This document shows positions 23,791 to 29,064 of a stretch of DNA of 57,042 nt, piece by piece. Under the pieces are notes generated by a model that saw nothing but the letters and a program-made list of their open reading frames with translations, was not told the DNA's origin and did not search any database. Each line of letters starts with the position of its first letter. Within the stretch, counting starts at the first letter, position 1. Origin of the DNA: Parcubacteria group bacterium LiPW_30 (GTDB lineage: Bacteria; Patescibacteriota; Minisyncoccia; Phycocordibacterales; VMEP01); the NCBI GenBank assembly GCA_007375595.1, contig VMEP01000001.1, positions 623,089 through 680,130 of the forward strand. The letters run 5' to 3'. Made by a program: the position numbers and the translations under genes.

Positions 23791-24354
23791 TTATGGCTTG
23801 AAAAATATGGCCATTCTACGCCAATCGTGCTTAAACGACTTGATATCCACAAAGAGGTCTTTCCCTTGTTCTTTAGAGAGTGATTCTGGCTCATTGAAGT
23901 AAAACCCTGTGAGTTGACCTTTCCTTTCAGGAAACTCAACTCCATCATTTTCTTCATAACCAGTTAATACCACCATGTGAAATTTTATCTGGCCGAGGGT
24001 ATATTTTGAAACAGAAACAATTACTGGACGTCCATCTTTAAGTTCATCGTGTATTTTTTGCAAACCTAAAATTTCTCCTATCTTCTCCCCTCTTTCAGAA
24101 TTTAAACCGTACTCCTTAGCTGTCTTCACAAAGTAATCATGGAACCATCCTGATGGACCATACCCTCCATCCTTCTTCCCTTTTTCACACATCTCCAAAA
24201 GTGACGGAGTCTTTATCATTCTAGTATTTTGCAAAATACTAGAATGATAATCTAACACCATTTTTAAACACGTCATGCCACAAGCTCTCGGCATCCAATA
24301 TGGGTTGTCGTTTACATCTAAGAATTGAGAATAGTATGGTACGTTAAGTTTCAT
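23791..24354 (-). CDS. C39-like papain-fold peptidase
   Basis: VPYYSQ, ACGMTCLKM (catalytic Cys), FHMVVLTGY (His), YFNEP; 1-nt overlap with the CDPS stop. Confidence 0.8.
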   Translation of the reverse strand: MKLNVPYYSQFLDVNDNPYWMPRACGMTCLKMVLDYHSSILQNTRMIKTPSLLEMCEKGKKDGGYGPSGWFHDYFVKTAKEYGLNSERGEKIGEILGLQKIHDELKDGRPVIVSVSKYTLGQIKFHMVVLTGYEENDGVEFPERKGQLTGFYFNEPESLSKEQGKDLFVDIKSFKHDWRRMAIFFKP

Positions 24355-25043
24355 TATCTTACTTCTAAAAATACCTTCGGCTCTGTGTCAATAATATTTT
24401 CTTTAATTTCTGGAAAAATCCGACCAAACTGTATATCCTCCACAAACCTTACTAAATCGCTGTCAAAAGGATACATGTAAGCATCAGTAATTAAATTTCC
24501 AAAAGAAACACGACAAAGAATTTCTGGTAATTCTTCTATTATATACGTACCAAGTTTATTTATTTCTTCATCGTCAAACTTTCTTTCCTCTTTTGAAACA
24601 TAGCTGATAACCAATTCATGTATCTGCTTTTTAAATTCTTCGTTTTTTATATAAAAAGAACATAAGTATTCCAATTTTTTTTTATATGATTCATTTAATA
24701 AACTATTCCAATTTTTATAATAAATTCGATTTATATCATCCTTACTAAAAGTTTTTTCTACTTGATTTTTCACATCAGACAAAATTCTACTCCCTTGATC
24801 AAGCGCCAAACGCATAGCTTTCTCTTTTGAAATTTTTTTTCTAACCTCTAAGTTAATGGAGTGGATACTATCCGCAACATAGACCAAAACAAAATCCTTT
24901 GTGTTTTGTAAAGCCCACCTTATCTCTTCTATTATGTTTTCAGTAGTAAACCACTTATTACCCAAACTAATTCCTACCCCAATGTTGTATTGTTTATTCT
25001 CCAAATCTATTATGTTTCCGCCCCTAATTTTATGTAATTCCAT
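24354..25043 (-). CDS. tRNA-dependent cyclodipeptide synthase (XYP subfamily)
   Basis: GVGIS26LGN29, Y167IIE-E171LP and Y191-P192 match the CDPS catalytic set (AlbC S37/N40/Y178/E182/Y202/position 203). Confidence 0.85.
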   Translation of the reverse strand: MELHKIRGGNIIDLENKQYNIGVGISLGNKWFTTENIIEEIRWALQNTKDFVLVYVADSIHSINLEVRKKISKEKAMRLALDQGSRILSDVKNQVEKTFSKDDINRIYYKNWNSLLNESYKKKLEYLCSFYIKNEEFKKQIHELVISYVSKEERKFDDEEINKLGTYIIEELPEILCRVSFGNLITDAYMYPFDSDLVRFVEDIQFGRIFPEIKENIIDTEPKVFLEVR

Positions 25044-25052
25044 ACTAATTCT

Positions 25053-27398
25053 CTACCTTACCTGCCAACCCTCCTTACTATTAAGAGCGTTTGTTACGCG
25101 ATTCATAATTTCATCAAGTTCTATGTCACTAAGTGTTTTTTCTTGGGATAAAAATACTAGATGGAAAGCGTAAGAAATTTTGCTATCCTTTTCGAATTTA
25201 TCAAACATCTCTATTCGCGTAAGTAAACTACCTGCTTCACTTTTAATAATTTCTTTTACAGCATCTTCTCCTGTTCCACTACCCACAAACACCGCAATAT
25301 CACGAAGCGCAAATGGATAAGGAGAAACTGTTTTATAACTAGAGCCTAGCAAAAACTGGTAAGTCAAAACTTCATGTTCTTTAGGTTCTTCAAGTTTTTC
25401 AATTACTGCATCAAAATCAATTTCTGTAATACATGGCTTTTCTTCGCAGGAAACAAACTTTGAAACGTCCACGCCAAAAGTTTCCCCTATTTCTTTAACA
25501 ATGCTTTTTGCTTCCTCCCCAAAATTATCTTTCTTTGTTCCTCCACCCAAAGCAAATGCCAGTTTTTTAATTTCGCTATCTTTAGTAAACACATTGCCAA
25601 ATTCAAAAATCTTAATTACCTTCTGCCCAAGAAGCGGAGCATTGTGAACATTTAATTTAAGAGATTCTTCCATCCCTTTTCGTAAACTTACGCGTAATTT
25701 TTCCTTATCTCCTGCAAGACCTTTTATAATTGAAACTTCACCCTCACTTCCAAAGGTGTATGTCATTACCTCAGAAAATCCGTGATTGAGCAATATTTCA
25801 CGAACCTTATCCTCGTAAAACAAGCGTTTATGAACCAAACCAACCCGAGAAAGTTTTGGTAGTACAGGAACTAATTTTTCATAACCCAAAATACGTCCTA
25901 TTTCTTCTGCAAGATCCTCTTTGATACGAATATCTAAACGCTCAGAAGGAACATTTACCACGTATCTCTCTTCTTTTAAATTTTCCACCACTCTCCCATA
26001 TCCAACTATTTTTCTTGTTGCCGAAAACTCCTCCATACTTTCCACAACGACTTTCCCGTGCACTCTTGTTGAGTGAACGATTTTGCCACCACCTAAATAC
26101 ATACCAACATGATCAACCCCCTCAGGAACTTTAGTTCCTCTTAAAAATTCTACTGATTCAAAATAAATTTTTCCTTCGCCAGAATTCGCAAACACTAAAT
26201 CTCCAAACCTTAATTCTTCTAATTTTACTCTTTCCGAAAAAACATATTTATCAACGGAAATACTCGGCATCCAAATACCTTTATATAAATAACTAATCAA
26301 AGAAGAACAATTAAAGGCGTGTGGAGCATCTTCGCGCATACTTGAAGGGTTTTTGTATGGCACCCCAACAACAGCCTTATACGTTTCTGTTATATAATTT
26401 TCAGGAATTATTTTTTCAAAAGAAAAAGAAAGTCTTCTAAGGGTGCTTTCAACATCGTTATTGGTATATGTTGTACCTAGAATCATATTCAGTTCGGAAA
26501 GCGAAATTCCCACATGATATTTAGTATCCTTGCGAAGATACACATCTGTTGCGACACTCCCTTCCACATCTTTACATAACTCCTTAATTAAATTCGCCGT
26601 CATATATAAACCTTCTTCTATAAGAGAGTTTGCAATACCATTTTCAAAACGCTTGGATGCGTCTGTGTGGAGGTCATACCTTTGTGAGGTCTTCCTAATT
26701 AAACTTGGATTGAAGTTGGCACTTTCAAGAATAATACTTGTTGTGTCTTCATTTATACCACTATGTTTTCCGCCCTTTATTCCAGCAAGACCGAGAGATT
26801 TTTCTTCATCGGCAATCACAAGAGTTTTCTCATCAAGTGCCAGTTCTTTGTCGTCGAGTGTAGTAAGCACTTCTCCACTCTTCGCAAAACGAGTGGCGAG
26901 CGTTCCTTTTATACTCCTTGTGTCATAAGCGTGCATTGGCTTATTAAGCGCGAATTGCACGTAATTAGTCGCATCAACGATGTTGTTTATACTTCTCTGC
27001 CCTATTGCCTCAAGGCGCGTTTTTAACCACTCTGGGCTTTCCTCGACAACAACACCGTCAATCCTCATGCTCATAAATCGTGAACAAAATTTAGCATCAT
27101 TAACGGAAAGCACAGGAGCAGGAACTAAAGAATTAGTAAAATCATCTCGTTTTTCAACACGTGAATCTTCTTTAAAAGTAAGTCCTAAATCAGCACATAA
27201 TTCACGGGCCATACCACGGTGTCCTAGTGCATCGTGTGCGCGATTTGGAAGAACTTTAATATCGTAAACAGTGTCATTAGGTAAAGAAGTAACCTCTTCT
27301 ACTTCAAACGATTTTTTATTTAAGGTATCAACAACAACCTCATTTTCGGGAAGAGTTTCAACAATATAATCTTGTAGCCATTGTTTAGAGAATTTCAT
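25053..27398 (-). CDS. pheT: phenylalanine--tRNA ligase beta subunit lacking B2, with an NlpC/P60 domain inserted in B5
   Basis: PNRAHD..RGMARE, B3/4 ESANF, B5 split around an insert and resuming at VPSERLDI..EDLAEEIGRI, C-terminal FDX-ACB RDIAV. Confidence 0.93.
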   Translation of the reverse strand: MKFSKQWLQDYIVETLPENEVVVDTLNKKSFEVEEVTSLPNDTVYDIKVLPNRAHDALGHRGMARELCADLGLTFKEDSRVEKRDDFTNSLVPAPVLSVNDAKFCSRFMSMRIDGVVVEESPEWLKTRLEAIGQRSINNIVDATNYVQFALNKPMHAYDTRSIKGTLATRFAKSGEVLTTLDDKELALDEKTLVIADEEKSLGLAGIKGGKHSGINEDTTSIILESANFNPSLIRKTSQRYDLHTDASKRFENGIANSLIEEGLYMTANLIKELCKDVEGSVATDVYLRKDTKYHVGISLSELNMILGTTYTNNDVESTLRRLSFSFEKIIPENYITETYKAVVGVPYKNPSSMREDAPHAFNCSSLISYLYKGIWMPSISVDKYVFSERVKLEELRFGDLVFANSGEGKIYFESVEFLRGTKVPEGVDHVGMYLGGGKIVHSTRVHGKVVVESMEEFSATRKIVGYGRVVENLKEERYVVNVPSERLDIRIKEDLAEEIGRILGYEKLVPVLPKLSRVGLVHKRLFYEDKVREILLNHGFSEVMTYTFGSEGEVSIIKGLAGDKEKLRVSLRKGMEESLKLNVHNAPLLGQKVIKIFEFGNVFTKDSEIKKLAFALGGGTKKDNFGEEAKSIVKEIGETFGVDVSKFVSCEEKPCITEIDFDAVIEKLEEPKEHEVLTYQFLLGSSYKTVSPYPFALRDIAVFVGSGTGEDAVKEIIKSEAGSLLTRIEMFDKFEKDSKISYAFHLVFLSQEKTLSDIELDEIMNRVTNALNSKEGWQVR

Positions 27399-28234
27399 AT
27401 GTGTTTTGAAATAATGCTCGACAATTCTTTATGATGGTTTGTAAATGTATGACTACAATTTACCAATTTATAACCAGTAAAATCTAACAGGGTATCTTTA
27501 AGAAGATTCATTGCGACGTCTATTGGAACAATCGTCCATTCCTCATGCTCATCGTCTCCAATAATACCAATAACTGGTATGGTAATATCTTTCAAGTGCT
27601 CAAGATTGCCAGAGGCAAAAGGCAATGCTTGTTTAAATTTATTGTCACTACCATAAAAGTCAATGTATGATTGCGCAGACATTGGAATTTCTCCCGAATG
27701 TACCGGCAATCCGGACGAAAGTAATCTTTGTCCAAAACTTTGTTCTACTAAATTATTTGCTTCTTCCATAAAATCAAAATCATTTTTCTTAAGATACCTC
27801 TCTTGGGAACCAAAACTATCCGAGAAACCAAGAAGAAACAACTTTGTTACCTTATTTTTATAATTCCCGTTTTTACTATAATAAGCAACCTTTTCAGACC
27901 CCAGAGAATGCCCCGAAAGAATAATAGATTCATATCCATTATCTAACGCAAACTTTATCCAAGCATCAATATCAAATACACTGTCCTCAAATTTCTCTAC
28001 TGCTGCGCCAGACTGTTGCCAGGCCTCAAGTAAGTATGCTCCTCGGTTGTTTACAAATAAGCTGTCAATATTTTTCAAACCAAGAACTTCCATTATTTCT
28101 TGTTCATACCCTTCCATATAAAAACTAGAGCCAGTCCCATGGGTATGTAAAAACATGGCCTTGCTATGATTTATATCATTCATCATCCCATAAAGCTCGA
28201 GCCCATCTTTTGTTATAACAGAGACAATTTTCAT
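27395..28234 (-). CDS. alpha/beta hydrolase (DUF1749-like)
   Basis: HTHGTGSSFY, nucleophile elbow SGHSLG, late D and H (DDEH, HTF); ATGA overlap with pheT. Confidence 0.8.
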   Translation of the reverse strand: MKIVSVITKDGLELYGMMNDINHSKAMFLHTHGTGSSFYMEGYEQEIMEVLGLKNIDSLFVNNRGAYLLEAWQQSGAAVEKFEDSVFDIDAWIKFALDNGYESIILSGHSLGSEKVAYYSKNGNYKNKVTKLFLLGFSDSFGSQERYLKKNDFDFMEEANNLVEQSFGQRLLSSGLPVHSGEIPMSAQSYIDFYGSDNKFKQALPFASGNLEHLKDITIPVIGIIGDDEHEEWTIVPIDVAMNLLKDTLLDFTGYKLVNCSHTFTNHHKELSSIISKHI

Positions 28235-28236
28235 GT

Positions 28237-29064
28237 TTAAAATTGATTAACCACCCGAAGATCACCATTGTATAAAAGACGTACGTCGTCAATTCCGTAT
28301 TTAAGCATCACCATTCTGTCTATTCCGCAACCAAAAGCAAAACCGCGGTATTCGCGAGGATTAATACCACCCGCTTCAAGCACGCGAGGATGAACCATTC
28401 CTGCGCCACCTATTTCTATCCAGCCTGTTTGTTTGCAAATATTACATCCACTTCCTTTACACTTAAAACACTGCATATCAAATTCATTGCCGGGTTCAAC
28501 GAAAGGAAAGTACGACGAACGAAGTCTAATTACAATATCTGTTTCAAAAAATTCTGAAAAAAGTTTCTGCATTACCCCAACCATCATTGAAAGAGATGAG
28601 TCTTTAGCAACATAAAAACCTTCAATTTGATAAAACTGCGCTTCGTGTGTCGCATCTGTTGCTTCATTACGAAAAACTTTTCCAGGACAACAAATTGCGA
28701 GTGGAAAATCGCGACCTTCCGCCACATACTTTTCCATCGCCCGAATCTGCATGTTGCTTGTATGAGTGCGAAGAACATATCCGACATCTTCGCCATACTT
28801 ATTTTTACTCCTCATGTCTTTAATCCAAAAAGTATCCTGCATATCGCGAGCTGGGTGATCACCAGGAACGTTTAGTGCGTCAAAGTTGTGCCACTCATTT
28901 TCAAGCTCTGGACCATCAACAGTATCAAACCCCATTCTTGAGAAAATGCTTGAAATACGATTAATTGCAATAGTTATCGGGTGTATATGTCCTAAACCAA
29001 GCTTTGCTTGGTCGGGCGAACTTCCGTTAGGAAGTTTTAGTCCTCTTTCTTCCTGAGATAGCAT
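28237..29064 (-). CDS. pheS: phenylalanine--tRNA ligase alpha subunit, short form
   Basis: HPARDMQDTF, LRTHTS, FRNE..DATH, YFPFVEP, GFAFGCGIDR; lacks the N-terminal coiled-coil arm. Confidence 0.97.
   Translation of the reverse strand: MLSQEERGLKLPNGSSPDQAKLGLGHIHPITIAINRISSIFSRMGFDTVDGPELENEWHNFDALNVPGDHPARDMQDTFWIKDMRSKNKYGEDVGYVLRTHTSNMQIRAMEKYVAEGRDFPLAICCPGKVFRNEATDATHEAQFYQIEGFYVAKDSSLSMMVGVMQKLFSEFFETDIVIRLRSSYFPFVEPGNEFDMQCFKCKGSGCNICKQTGWIEIGGAGMVHPRVLEAGGINPREYRGFAFGCGIDRMVMLKYGIDDVRLLYNGDLRVVNQF

Follow-up and report, generated by a model that had tools for sequence, protein, structure and literature searches.

Why should the gene for an essential aminoacyl-tRNA synthetase subunit encode a complete cysteine-peptidase domain? 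The question is raised by pheT, which specifies the beta subunit of phenylalanyl-tRNA synthetase (PheRS), in a 57,042-nucleotide stretch of DNA from Parcubacteria group bacterium LiPW_30 (contig VMEP01000001.1, positions 623,089 to 680,130 of the forward strand; hereafter the window), where an NlpC/P60 domain lies inside the B5 domain of the encoded protein. The answer that we consider probable is that this domain is an active cytoplasmic cysteine peptidase, which forms a composite with B5, acts together with a C39-like enzyme and has a role that does not depend on the charging of tRNA.

The NlpC/P60 insert in PheT

The PheRS genes of the window and the parts of PheT are listed below.

25053..27398, minus strand: pheT, PheRS beta subunit, 781 amino acids, without B2 and with the insert (uninterrupted open reading frame; TIGR00472)
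26571..27086, minus strand: B3/4 editing domain, residues 105-276, apparently intact (Pfam B3_4, E 1.6e-59)
26403..26519, minus strand: N-terminal half of B5, residues 294-332, beta-alpha-alpha-beta (in-silico excision; secondary structure from AlphaFold2, AF2)
25977..26402, minus strand: NlpC/P60 (C40) cysteine-peptidase domain in the B5 loop, residues 333-474, 142 amino acids (Pfam PF00877)
26307..26309, minus strand: codon of catalytic Cys364, kept in 43/43 PheT-borne, free and fused modules
26109..26111, minus strand: codon of catalytic His430, kept in 43/43 modules
26073..26075, minus strand: codon of the third triad residue, His442, kept in 42/43 modules, with Gln in one
25863..25976, minus strand: C-terminal half of B5, residues 475-512 (Pfam B5, profile positions 32-67)
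25902..25934, minus strand: B5 motif D489-x5-D495-x2-E498-E499, Mg2+ site common with the alpha subunit (conservation in PheT-borne modules)
25437..25850, minus strand: catalytic-like module (CLM) B6/B7, residues 517-654 (Pfam PF17759)
25056..25325, minus strand: FDX-ACB anticodon-binding domain B8, residues 692-781 (Pfam PF03147)
28237..29064, minus strand: pheS, PheRS alpha subunit, short form, 275 amino acids (Pfam PF01409, E 2.7e-89; TIGR00468, 277 bits)

The product of the window gene scored 417.8 bits against the NCBIfam model TIGR00472 pheT_bact (cutoff 402.65) and belongs with the bacterial PheT proteins, since B3/4, B5, CLM and FDX-ACB are all present and pheS lies upstream in the same orientation. 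The NlpC/P60 profile PF00877 matched residues 359-466 (44.4 bits, where the gathering score is 23; E 1.8e-11), and phmmer searches against solved NlpC/P60 chains gave E values down to 9e-8. In the intact protein the Pfam B5 match was confined to the C-terminal half of that domain (residues 471-506, profile positions 32-67); removal of residues 333-474 in silico produced a single contiguous B5 match spanning positions 3-67 of the 67 in the profile, at 57.9 bits. Because the excised flanks rejoin as one contiguous match, the insertion into the B5 loop is clean. A sequence-only reading of this DNA had placed an intact, in-frame NlpC/P60 domain within B5 at 25975-26415 (residues 328-475). The Pfam match, the excision and the presence of every motif that it had quoted bear out the domain itself, and its boundaries are here refined to residues 333-474.

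The same reading had recognized a complete Cys-His-His triad, and Cys364, His430 and His442 indeed align with the catalytic residues of the solved NlpC/P60 enzymes 4xcm and 7cfl, in the canonical, non-permuted order of p60. The AF2 model of the 212-residue module formed by B5 and the insert has a predicted local distance difference test score (pLDDT) of 95.3 and a predicted TM score (pTM) of 0.88. In the numbering of the module, Cys71 begins a helix (71-78), and His137 and His149 stand on adjacent strands, as in a papain-like alpha+beta fold. The model implies that B5 and the peptidase are held in a fixed mutual arrangement, as one rigid composite module. In Foldseek searches with the insert, the nearest solved structures were DL-endopeptidases of the p60 type, led by Acd24020 (7cfl; TM score 0.86, root mean square deviation 1.9 Å); further matches included MepS, CwlO, LytE, RipA/B, the YkfC-type structure 3h41 and the inactive RipD (4jxb and 4lj1), and no LRAT- or CHAP-type structure was among the 50 matches listed. 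As the sequence-only reading had anticipated, intein motifs and a signal peptide were not found: Pfam revealed no intein, Hint or SH3b domain in the window PheT, and no signal peptide, lipobox, transmembrane segment or cell-wall-binding domain was detected in the PheT-borne, free or fused forms of the module described below, or in its C39_2 partner. Base composition does not break at the insert.

The junctions of the insert are also real rather than chimeric. An identical protein is encoded on a separate 7.6-kb Logan assembly contig (L001), where the gene order is the same, and a copy that is 94% identical to the window PheT was recovered from a JGI sample. In a collection of 5.8 billion proteins, PF00877 occurred together with PheT domains in 120/120 of the best PheT relatives (52-100% identity), which came from Paceibacterota, Nomurabacteria and Parcubacteria. 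A profile search with B5 plus insert returned, at E<=1e-30, 183 clusters at 50% identity, most of them by far 770-840 amino acids long with the module at about residues 290-520. Among GTDB species representatives we recovered 37 Patescibacteria loci; a complete insert-bearing PheT (743-827 amino acids) is present in 28 of them and another 4 are cut by a contig end, and among the insert-bearing loci are those of CP011215, a complete Campbellbacteria genome, and of a metagenome-assembled genome from Taylorbacteria. An assembly chimera is thus ruled out by the independent contig and by hundreds of orthologues.

Two observations accompany these searches. The top match of the module profile (E 6e-101) was P0085, a protein of 1183 amino acids with ~10 separate matched stretches, which appears to consist of many tandem NlpC/P60-like units. 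Moreover, full-length PheTs of ~780-800 amino acids (P0386, P0394, P0430, P0355, P0360 and P0364) carry inconsistent NCBI names; 'C40 family peptidase', 'phenylalanine--tRNA ligase beta subunit-related protein' and 'phenylalanyl-tRNA synthetase beta subunit' have all been given to insert-bearing PheT, and the insert evidently misleads automatic annotation of this essential protein.

Across these proteins the insertion site is identical everywhere and the insert is 137-166 amino acids long. Pairwise distances between inserts correlate with those between the rest of the PheT sequences (r=0.73, Mantel p ~0.001), no less closely than two host regions do with each other (0.64). The mean pairwise identity of the insert (51.3%) is close to that of B3/4 (49.9%) and exceeds those of FDX-ACB (46.6%) and the CLM (35.9%); the most conserved segment of PheT is the C-terminal half of B5, at 62%. 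In 29 PheT-borne inserts the triad residues are kept in 29/29, 29/29 and 28/29 (one Gln); a triad not conserved in orthologous inserts, which the sequence-only reading had named as a refutation, is thus not what is seen. The insert is under purifying selection. Because insert distances track host distances and the site is fixed, one ancient insertion followed by vertical descent accounts for the distribution. Overall, the pattern indicates a single vertical insertion, clade-wide in Paceibacteria PheT, and not a mobile element; an intein or similar element is ruled out by the absence of Pfam motifs, the fixed site and the co-evolution with the host protein.

The synthetase around the insert retains its recognizable parts. 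In the window B3/4 domain, the equivalents of Thermus thermophilus T249, N250, H261 and E334 are conserved in the alignment, and among the 29 PheTs these editing-site positions hold Asn in 29/29, His in 29/29, Thr in 27/29 and Glu in 23/29. Ser replaces the equivalent of T. thermophilus beta-Glu334 (E225 in the window) in 6/29 insert-bearing PheTs (loci L008-L044), a replacement that may affect editing in some members of the clade. B2, an OB fold, is absent, as had been noticed from the sequence: residue ~40 of the window PheT aligns to residue 150 of the T. thermophilus protein. The length of the B1/B3-4 region is similar in 28/28 full-length orthologues, which suggests that B2 is absent clade-wide. 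The window PheS aligns to TIGR00468 only from profile position 65 and probably lacks the N-terminal coiled-coil tRNA arm. The window accordingly encodes a minimal PheRS, with a short PheS (28237..29064, minus strand) beside a PheT without B2 (27279..27398, minus strand). In the C-terminal half of B5, we take D489, D495, E498 and E499 to be Mg2+ ligands, after UniProt/HAMAP annotation. The B5-equivalent subdomain has been reported to touch the alpha catalytic domain via a conserved Mg2+ (PMC8136816).

Free modules, fused modules and the C39-like partner

Most of the proteins matched by the B5-plus-insert query are not PheT. They are 190-250 amino acids long, cover 85-99% of the query and contain both B5 halves. 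At nine loci (L003-L005, L007, L017, L020, L035, L037 and L041) a free gene of 204-247 codons encodes a B5 half, the peptidase and the other B5 half, in that order, and no B3/4 or CLM sequence was found beside the module at any of them. The short matches therefore cannot be regarded as fragments of a split pheT at these nine loci. P0004 on L002 is a true pheT fragment and not a free module; on that JGI contig (L002:1-14759) the genes for RF-1, a glycosyltransferase, pheS and pheT are each split into adjacent open reading frames, which are probably assembly frameshift errors.

In 9/9 loci the free module adjoins a gene of 380-391 codons that joins a PheS core to an FDX-ACB domain. A classical short PheS without FDX-ACB is found in 29/29 insert-bearing loci with a visible upstream gene. 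The positions of the PheS+FDX-ACB genes are as follows.

L003:5820-6962, PheS+FDX-ACB gene
L004:5821-6963, PheS+FDX-ACB gene
L005:3904-5046, PheS+FDX-ACB gene
L007:108-1256, PheS+FDX-ACB gene
L017:6798-7946, PheS+FDX-ACB gene
L020:6753-7922, PheS+FDX-ACB gene
L035:6724-7899, PheS+FDX-ACB gene
L037:6833-7981, PheS+FDX-ACB gene
L041:6838-7986, PheS+FDX-ACB gene

These genes, which stand in place of pheS in Paceibacteria, scored 240-244 bits on TIGR00469 pheS_mito, below its cutoff of 258, and 248-253 bits on NF051887 'PheS-related mystery ligase SrmL', below its cutoff of 300. Their product is presumably a monomeric PheRS; the architecture of PheS core plus FDX-ACB is that of the mitochondrial-type monomeric enzyme (TIGR00469), although the genes described here are bacterial. 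From synteny and the 9-versus-29 association, we infer that genomes in which the module is free encode no PheT at any other locus. The L007 locus is collinear with the window and carries PheS+FDX-ACB, the module (with a 4-nt overlap), C39_2, a 154-codon open reading frame and gyrB. In L003:6963-7000, L004:6964-7000 and L005:5047-5083 the free module and the PheS+FDX-ACB gene point away from each other, with ~37-38 bp between their predicted starts; this is very little room for two promoters and may mean unusual start codons or unusual regulation.

The module also occurs fused to a C39_2 peptidase, in P0037, P0040, P0041, P0046 and P0061 and at L006, where the fusion is not near a PheRS gene. 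In a neighbour-joining tree, in which deep nodes are moderately supported, the free and fused forms fell into two clades (bootstrap 100 each) nested among the PheT-borne inserts, and one of these was sister to the clade of the window with 71-81% support.

A comparison of the two kinds of conserved residue in these forms is informative as to what is being maintained. The triad is intact in 14/14 free and fused modules. In the same 14 modules the B5 motif R-x-D-x5-D-x2-E-E has decayed, the first Asp being kept in 4/14, the second in 1/14, and the two Glu residues in 2/14 and 6/14, compared with 26-29 of 27-29 PheT-borne modules for the residues of this motif. Motif decay together with triad retention shows which function selection protects: judged from these counts, selection outside PheT lapses on the synthetase-linked motif and persists on the peptidase.

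The gene for the conserved partner of the module lies close to pheT in the window.

23791..24354, minus strand: C39_2-type papain-fold cysteine peptidase, 187 amino acids (Pfam PF13529, E 1.3e-13, 52.2 bits against 24)

A C39_2 gene lies downstream of pheT in 23/31 loci whose pheT is complete, at least at its C-terminal end, and follows the free module in 2 loci; in others it is fused to the module. The family has 139 matches, all of 148-243 amino acids, and every taxon-labelled one is from Patescibacteria. Cys25 and His126 of the partner are invariant in 27 sequences. A sequence search of the PDB with this protein gave nothing useful and only the fold search matched, the AF2 model (pLDDT 95.5) aligning with 6mpz at a TM score of 0.77. 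C39-like domains are known in mycobacteriophage lysins, as in domain N5 of LysA (PMC3314691). The partner has the fold and the Cys/His residues in common with the Peptidase C39 and C39_2 proteins LahT, ComA, PCAT1, LysA N5 and PeiR; unlike the C39 leader peptidases and lysins, it is a stand-alone protein of ~165-200 amino acids, predicted to be cytosolic, without an ABC transporter or lysin modules.

The active site and the candidate functions

To compare the module with known enzymes, we scored 43 modules against the gamma-D-Glu signature of Xu et al., which is defined on Bacillus cereus YkfC and whose numbering we use (PMC2954226). The signature comprises Tyr226, Trp228, Asp237, Ser239, a small residue at 257 and the Asp237-Arg255 pair (PMC2954226). 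Tyr226, Ser239 and the small residue at 257 are kept in 42-43 of the 43 modules. The Asp237/Arg255 pair co-varies perfectly, both residues being kept in 22/43 (type 1) and both replaced in 21/43 (type 2). In type 2, Asp237 is replaced by Ser or Asn and Arg255 by Ser, and a new conserved Arg is found in an 'NPSSMR' loop; the window insert, the clade-ii free modules and all of the fusions are of this type. Position 256 holds Ile, Leu, Val or Met in 40/43 modules and is never acidic. Membership of the YkfC/dipeptidyl-peptidase VI subfamily is thereby ruled out, as there is neither an acidic residue 256 nor an SH3b domain.

The module therefore has two kinds of relative among characterized NlpC/P60 enzymes. 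With the p60-type DL-endopeptidases (Acd24020 7cfl, CwlO/LytE, MepS and RipA/RipB) it has in common the fold, the non-permuted triad and Tyr226, Ser239 and the small residue 257. Those enzymes, however, are secreted or are lipoproteins with cell-wall-targeting domains, whereas the module is nested in a cytosolic synthetase without an export signal; in addition, the window subtype is without the Asp237/Arg255 pair and Trp228, and the alignments show a family-specific hairpin of ~16 residues before the catalytic His. YkfC, or dipeptidyl-peptidase VI, is an NlpC/P60 enzyme that acts inside the cell on free stem peptides (PMC2954226), and the YkfC of Chlamydia serves intracellular murein-peptide recycling in a bacterium with a reduced genome (PMC9928106). 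As in YkfC, an accessory domain packs against the catalytic domain, and in the module that domain is B5; YkfC, though, caps its site for a free N-terminal L-Ala with Asp256 and Tyr118 of SH3b, and the module has neither.

These comparisons fit the following course of events. A non-permuted NlpC/P60 domain would have been inserted once, long ago, in a surface loop of B5 in the PheT of an ancestor of many Paceibacteria (Parcubacteria/OD1). Within PheT, B5 would keep its role in the synthetase, docking on the PheS catalytic domain via the common Mg2+ site; the enzyme and its B3/4 editing site look intact. The peptidase would be a cytoplasmic thiol hydrolase, with PheT as its historical carrier, and would work with the small C39-like cysteine peptidase that is its genomic neighbour or fusion partner. 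Where a PheS-core+FDX-ACB gene replaced the classical alpha2beta2 genes at the locus, the rest of pheT would have gone and B5::peptidase would have persisted as a gene, keeping the triad while the PheS-docking Mg2+ motif decayed. Both the catalytic activity and the cytoplasmic location of the module are predictions from its sequence. The substrates may be small gamma-D-glutamyl or isopeptide-linked peptides, such as peptidoglycan stem fragments taken up or turned over by auxotrophs. By analogy with the known enzymes, muropeptide salvage is the most plausible of the roles that the sequence-only reading had offered; that peptidoglycan-type gamma-D-glutamyl peptides are the substrate is nevertheless a tentative proposal, because the S1 pocket of the window protein is remodelled. 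For the same reason, the substrate in the window may be other than gamma-D-Glu peptides.

Several points weigh against a peptidase that is independent of tRNA charging and acts on such peptides. The window protein has Asn at both 228 and 237 and Ser at 255, so that the strict gamma-D-Glu signature is not present, and the Asp256 and SH3b domain that define YkfC are lacking. The nearest folds of the C39_2 partner are not those of established cell-wall enzymes but the double-glycine leader peptidases LahT150, ComA and PCAT1, followed by PeiR and staphopain. The free module overlaps the 3' end of the PheS+FDX-ACB gene, in the same operon, in L007, L037 and L041. Finally, B5 docks on the aminoacylation domain (PMC8136816), and a PheRS-coupled function is thus possible for the PheT-borne form.

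The alternative that takes these last points furthest is tRNA-linked chemistry, in which the thiol acts on an ester or amide handled by PheRS, for instance in the deacylation of mischarged or D-aminoacyl-tRNAPhe, the hydrolysis of N-blocked Phe-tRNA or the transfer of Phe via a thioester. We consider it unlikely. It would accord with the placement of the insert by the aminoacylation domain of the alpha subunit through the conserved Mg2+ contact of B5 (PMC8136816), with the free module adjoining the PheS+FDX-ACB gene in 9/9 loci and overlapping its 3' end in three, with the lack of an editing domain in enzymes of the PheS+FDX-ACB type, and with aminoacyl-tRNA-using genes nearby, namely a cyclodipeptide synthase (CDPS) in the window and an ATE_C/FemAB-like gene in L002. 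However, the PheT-borne forms retain the B3/4 editing domain with its key residues, the PheS-docking motif decays in the free modules, the C39_2 fusions are remote from PheRS genes, the module resembles peptidoglycan DL-endopeptidases in its fold and S1 residues, and the CDPS and FemAB-like genes do not recur as neighbours from locus to locus. No deacylase, moreover, is known to have an NlpC/P60 fold. The sequence-only reading had suggested a part in aminoacyl editing on the ground that B2 is missing, but editing resides in B3/B4 of PheT and not in B2, and B3/4 is present here at E 1.6e-59 with its residues largely conserved.

Other hydrolytic domains are embedded in synthetases in a similar manner, as are CP1 of Leu/Ile/ValRS, INS of ProRS and B3/B4 of PheT itself. 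These domains hydrolyse aminoacyl-tRNA for fidelity, whereas the module has a papain-like peptidase fold, keeps its catalytic residues and loses the contact motif with the synthetase; no tRNA function is known for that fold. CtdA is a stand-alone relative of B3/B4 (PMC12268091), and like CtdA, a piece of PheT (B5::peptidase) also exists as an independent gene.

In a specific form of tRNA-linked chemistry, which we regard as quite unlikely, the B5-Mg2+ contact would hold the thiol at PheS, where it would take Phe, a mischarged residue or a D-amino acid from tRNAPhe or from the adenylate as a thioester and then hydrolyse or transfer it. If this were true, PheRS would be a bifunctional enzyme with a second, papain-type site for quality control or aminoacyl transfer; once PheT had been lost, the module would work in trans alongside a monomeric PheRS that lacks editing; and a new fold class would be added to aminoacyl-tRNA chemistry.

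We likewise give little chance to a non-catalytic binding or sensor domain, which would bind muropeptides or another ligand and regulate PheRS or something else, in the manner of inactive RipD. Catalytically dead NlpC/P60 domains do exist, the RipD structures 4jxb and 4lj1 among the Foldseek matches being examples, and the S1 pocket is remodelled in the window subtype. But inactive homologues characteristically lose triad residues, and here Cys, His and His are kept in 43/43, 43/43 and 42/43 modules across three architectures, down to ~33% identity to the window module.

It is highly improbable that the module is an exported lysin or cell-wall remodeller, whereby non-classical export would bring PheRS or the free module to the envelope or host surface to cut peptidoglycan. 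Attachment to host cells is the presumed way of life of many Patescibacteria, and the closest structural relatives of the module are secreted autolysins; yet the host protein is an essential cytosolic enzyme, and no form of the module, nor its C39_2 partner, has a signal peptide, lipobox, transmembrane segment or cell-wall-binding domain. The moonlighting at the host interface mooted from the sequence is, without an export signal, equally unsupported. An artefact or a neutral passenger in an essential gene has a negligible chance of being the explanation, as all that speaks for it is the prior suspicion that attaches to odd architectures in metagenome assemblies, and independent assemblies, hundreds of orthologues, conservation of the insert as strong as that of the editing domain and its occurrence as a gene of its own at loci that lack the rest of pheT speak against it; the latter also contradicts the earlier idea of a domain merely sheltering in an essential gene.

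Other neighbours and the meaning of the insert

Two further genes are interspersed with pheS, pheT and the C39_2 gene in the window.

24354..25043, minus strand: tRNA-dependent CDPS, with pheT on one side and the C39_2 gene on the other (TIGR04539, 54.7 bits, cutoff 45; Pfam CDPS, E 2.7e-8)
27395..28234, minus strand: open reading frame of 279 codons between pheS and pheT, with a 4-nt overlap with the pheT start (Hydrolase_4, E 2.7e-4, below threshold; no NCBIfam match)

The CDPS is an aminoacyl-tRNA-consuming enzyme inside the PheRS operon of the window, and a Parcubacteria CDPS has been characterised (PMC7613923). The 279-codon frame is also present on the independent contig L001. No homologue of the CDPS or of the alpha/beta-hydrolase was found in 43 other related loci; as conserved partners of the module both are ruled out by this count (0 of 43), and the CDPS is, on this distribution, specific to the window lineage. 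In L002, a gene of the ATE_C/Acetyltransf_6 type (FemAB-like, from a family of aminoacyl-tRNA-dependent transferases) directly follows the C39_2 gene.

We found no published description of the insert architecture, of free B5::NlpC/P60 genes or of PheS+FDX-ACB genes in these bacteria in the searchable literature, which is not proof that none exists. Each of the domain families is already familiar, and public databases list the proteins, with one and the same protein going by any of three names; the architecture is apparently undescribed. The domains that synthetases usually acquire serve tRNA binding, editing or signalling, and a papain-type peptidase under strong selection in an essential synthetase subunit, throughout a class of ultra-small, uncultured bacteria, is an unusual addition. 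Its PheT-borne, free and fused states constitute a natural experiment, of which the derived states are the more striking part, and the module is a compact and confidently modelled target for biochemistry. The PheS+FDX-ACB genes provide bacterial candidates for a monomeric PheRS and bear on the origin of the architecture of the mitochondrial enzyme. Overall, the results point to an unrecognised cytoplasmic pathway of two peptidases, one NlpC/P60 and one C39-like, which may operate in these scavenging organisms.

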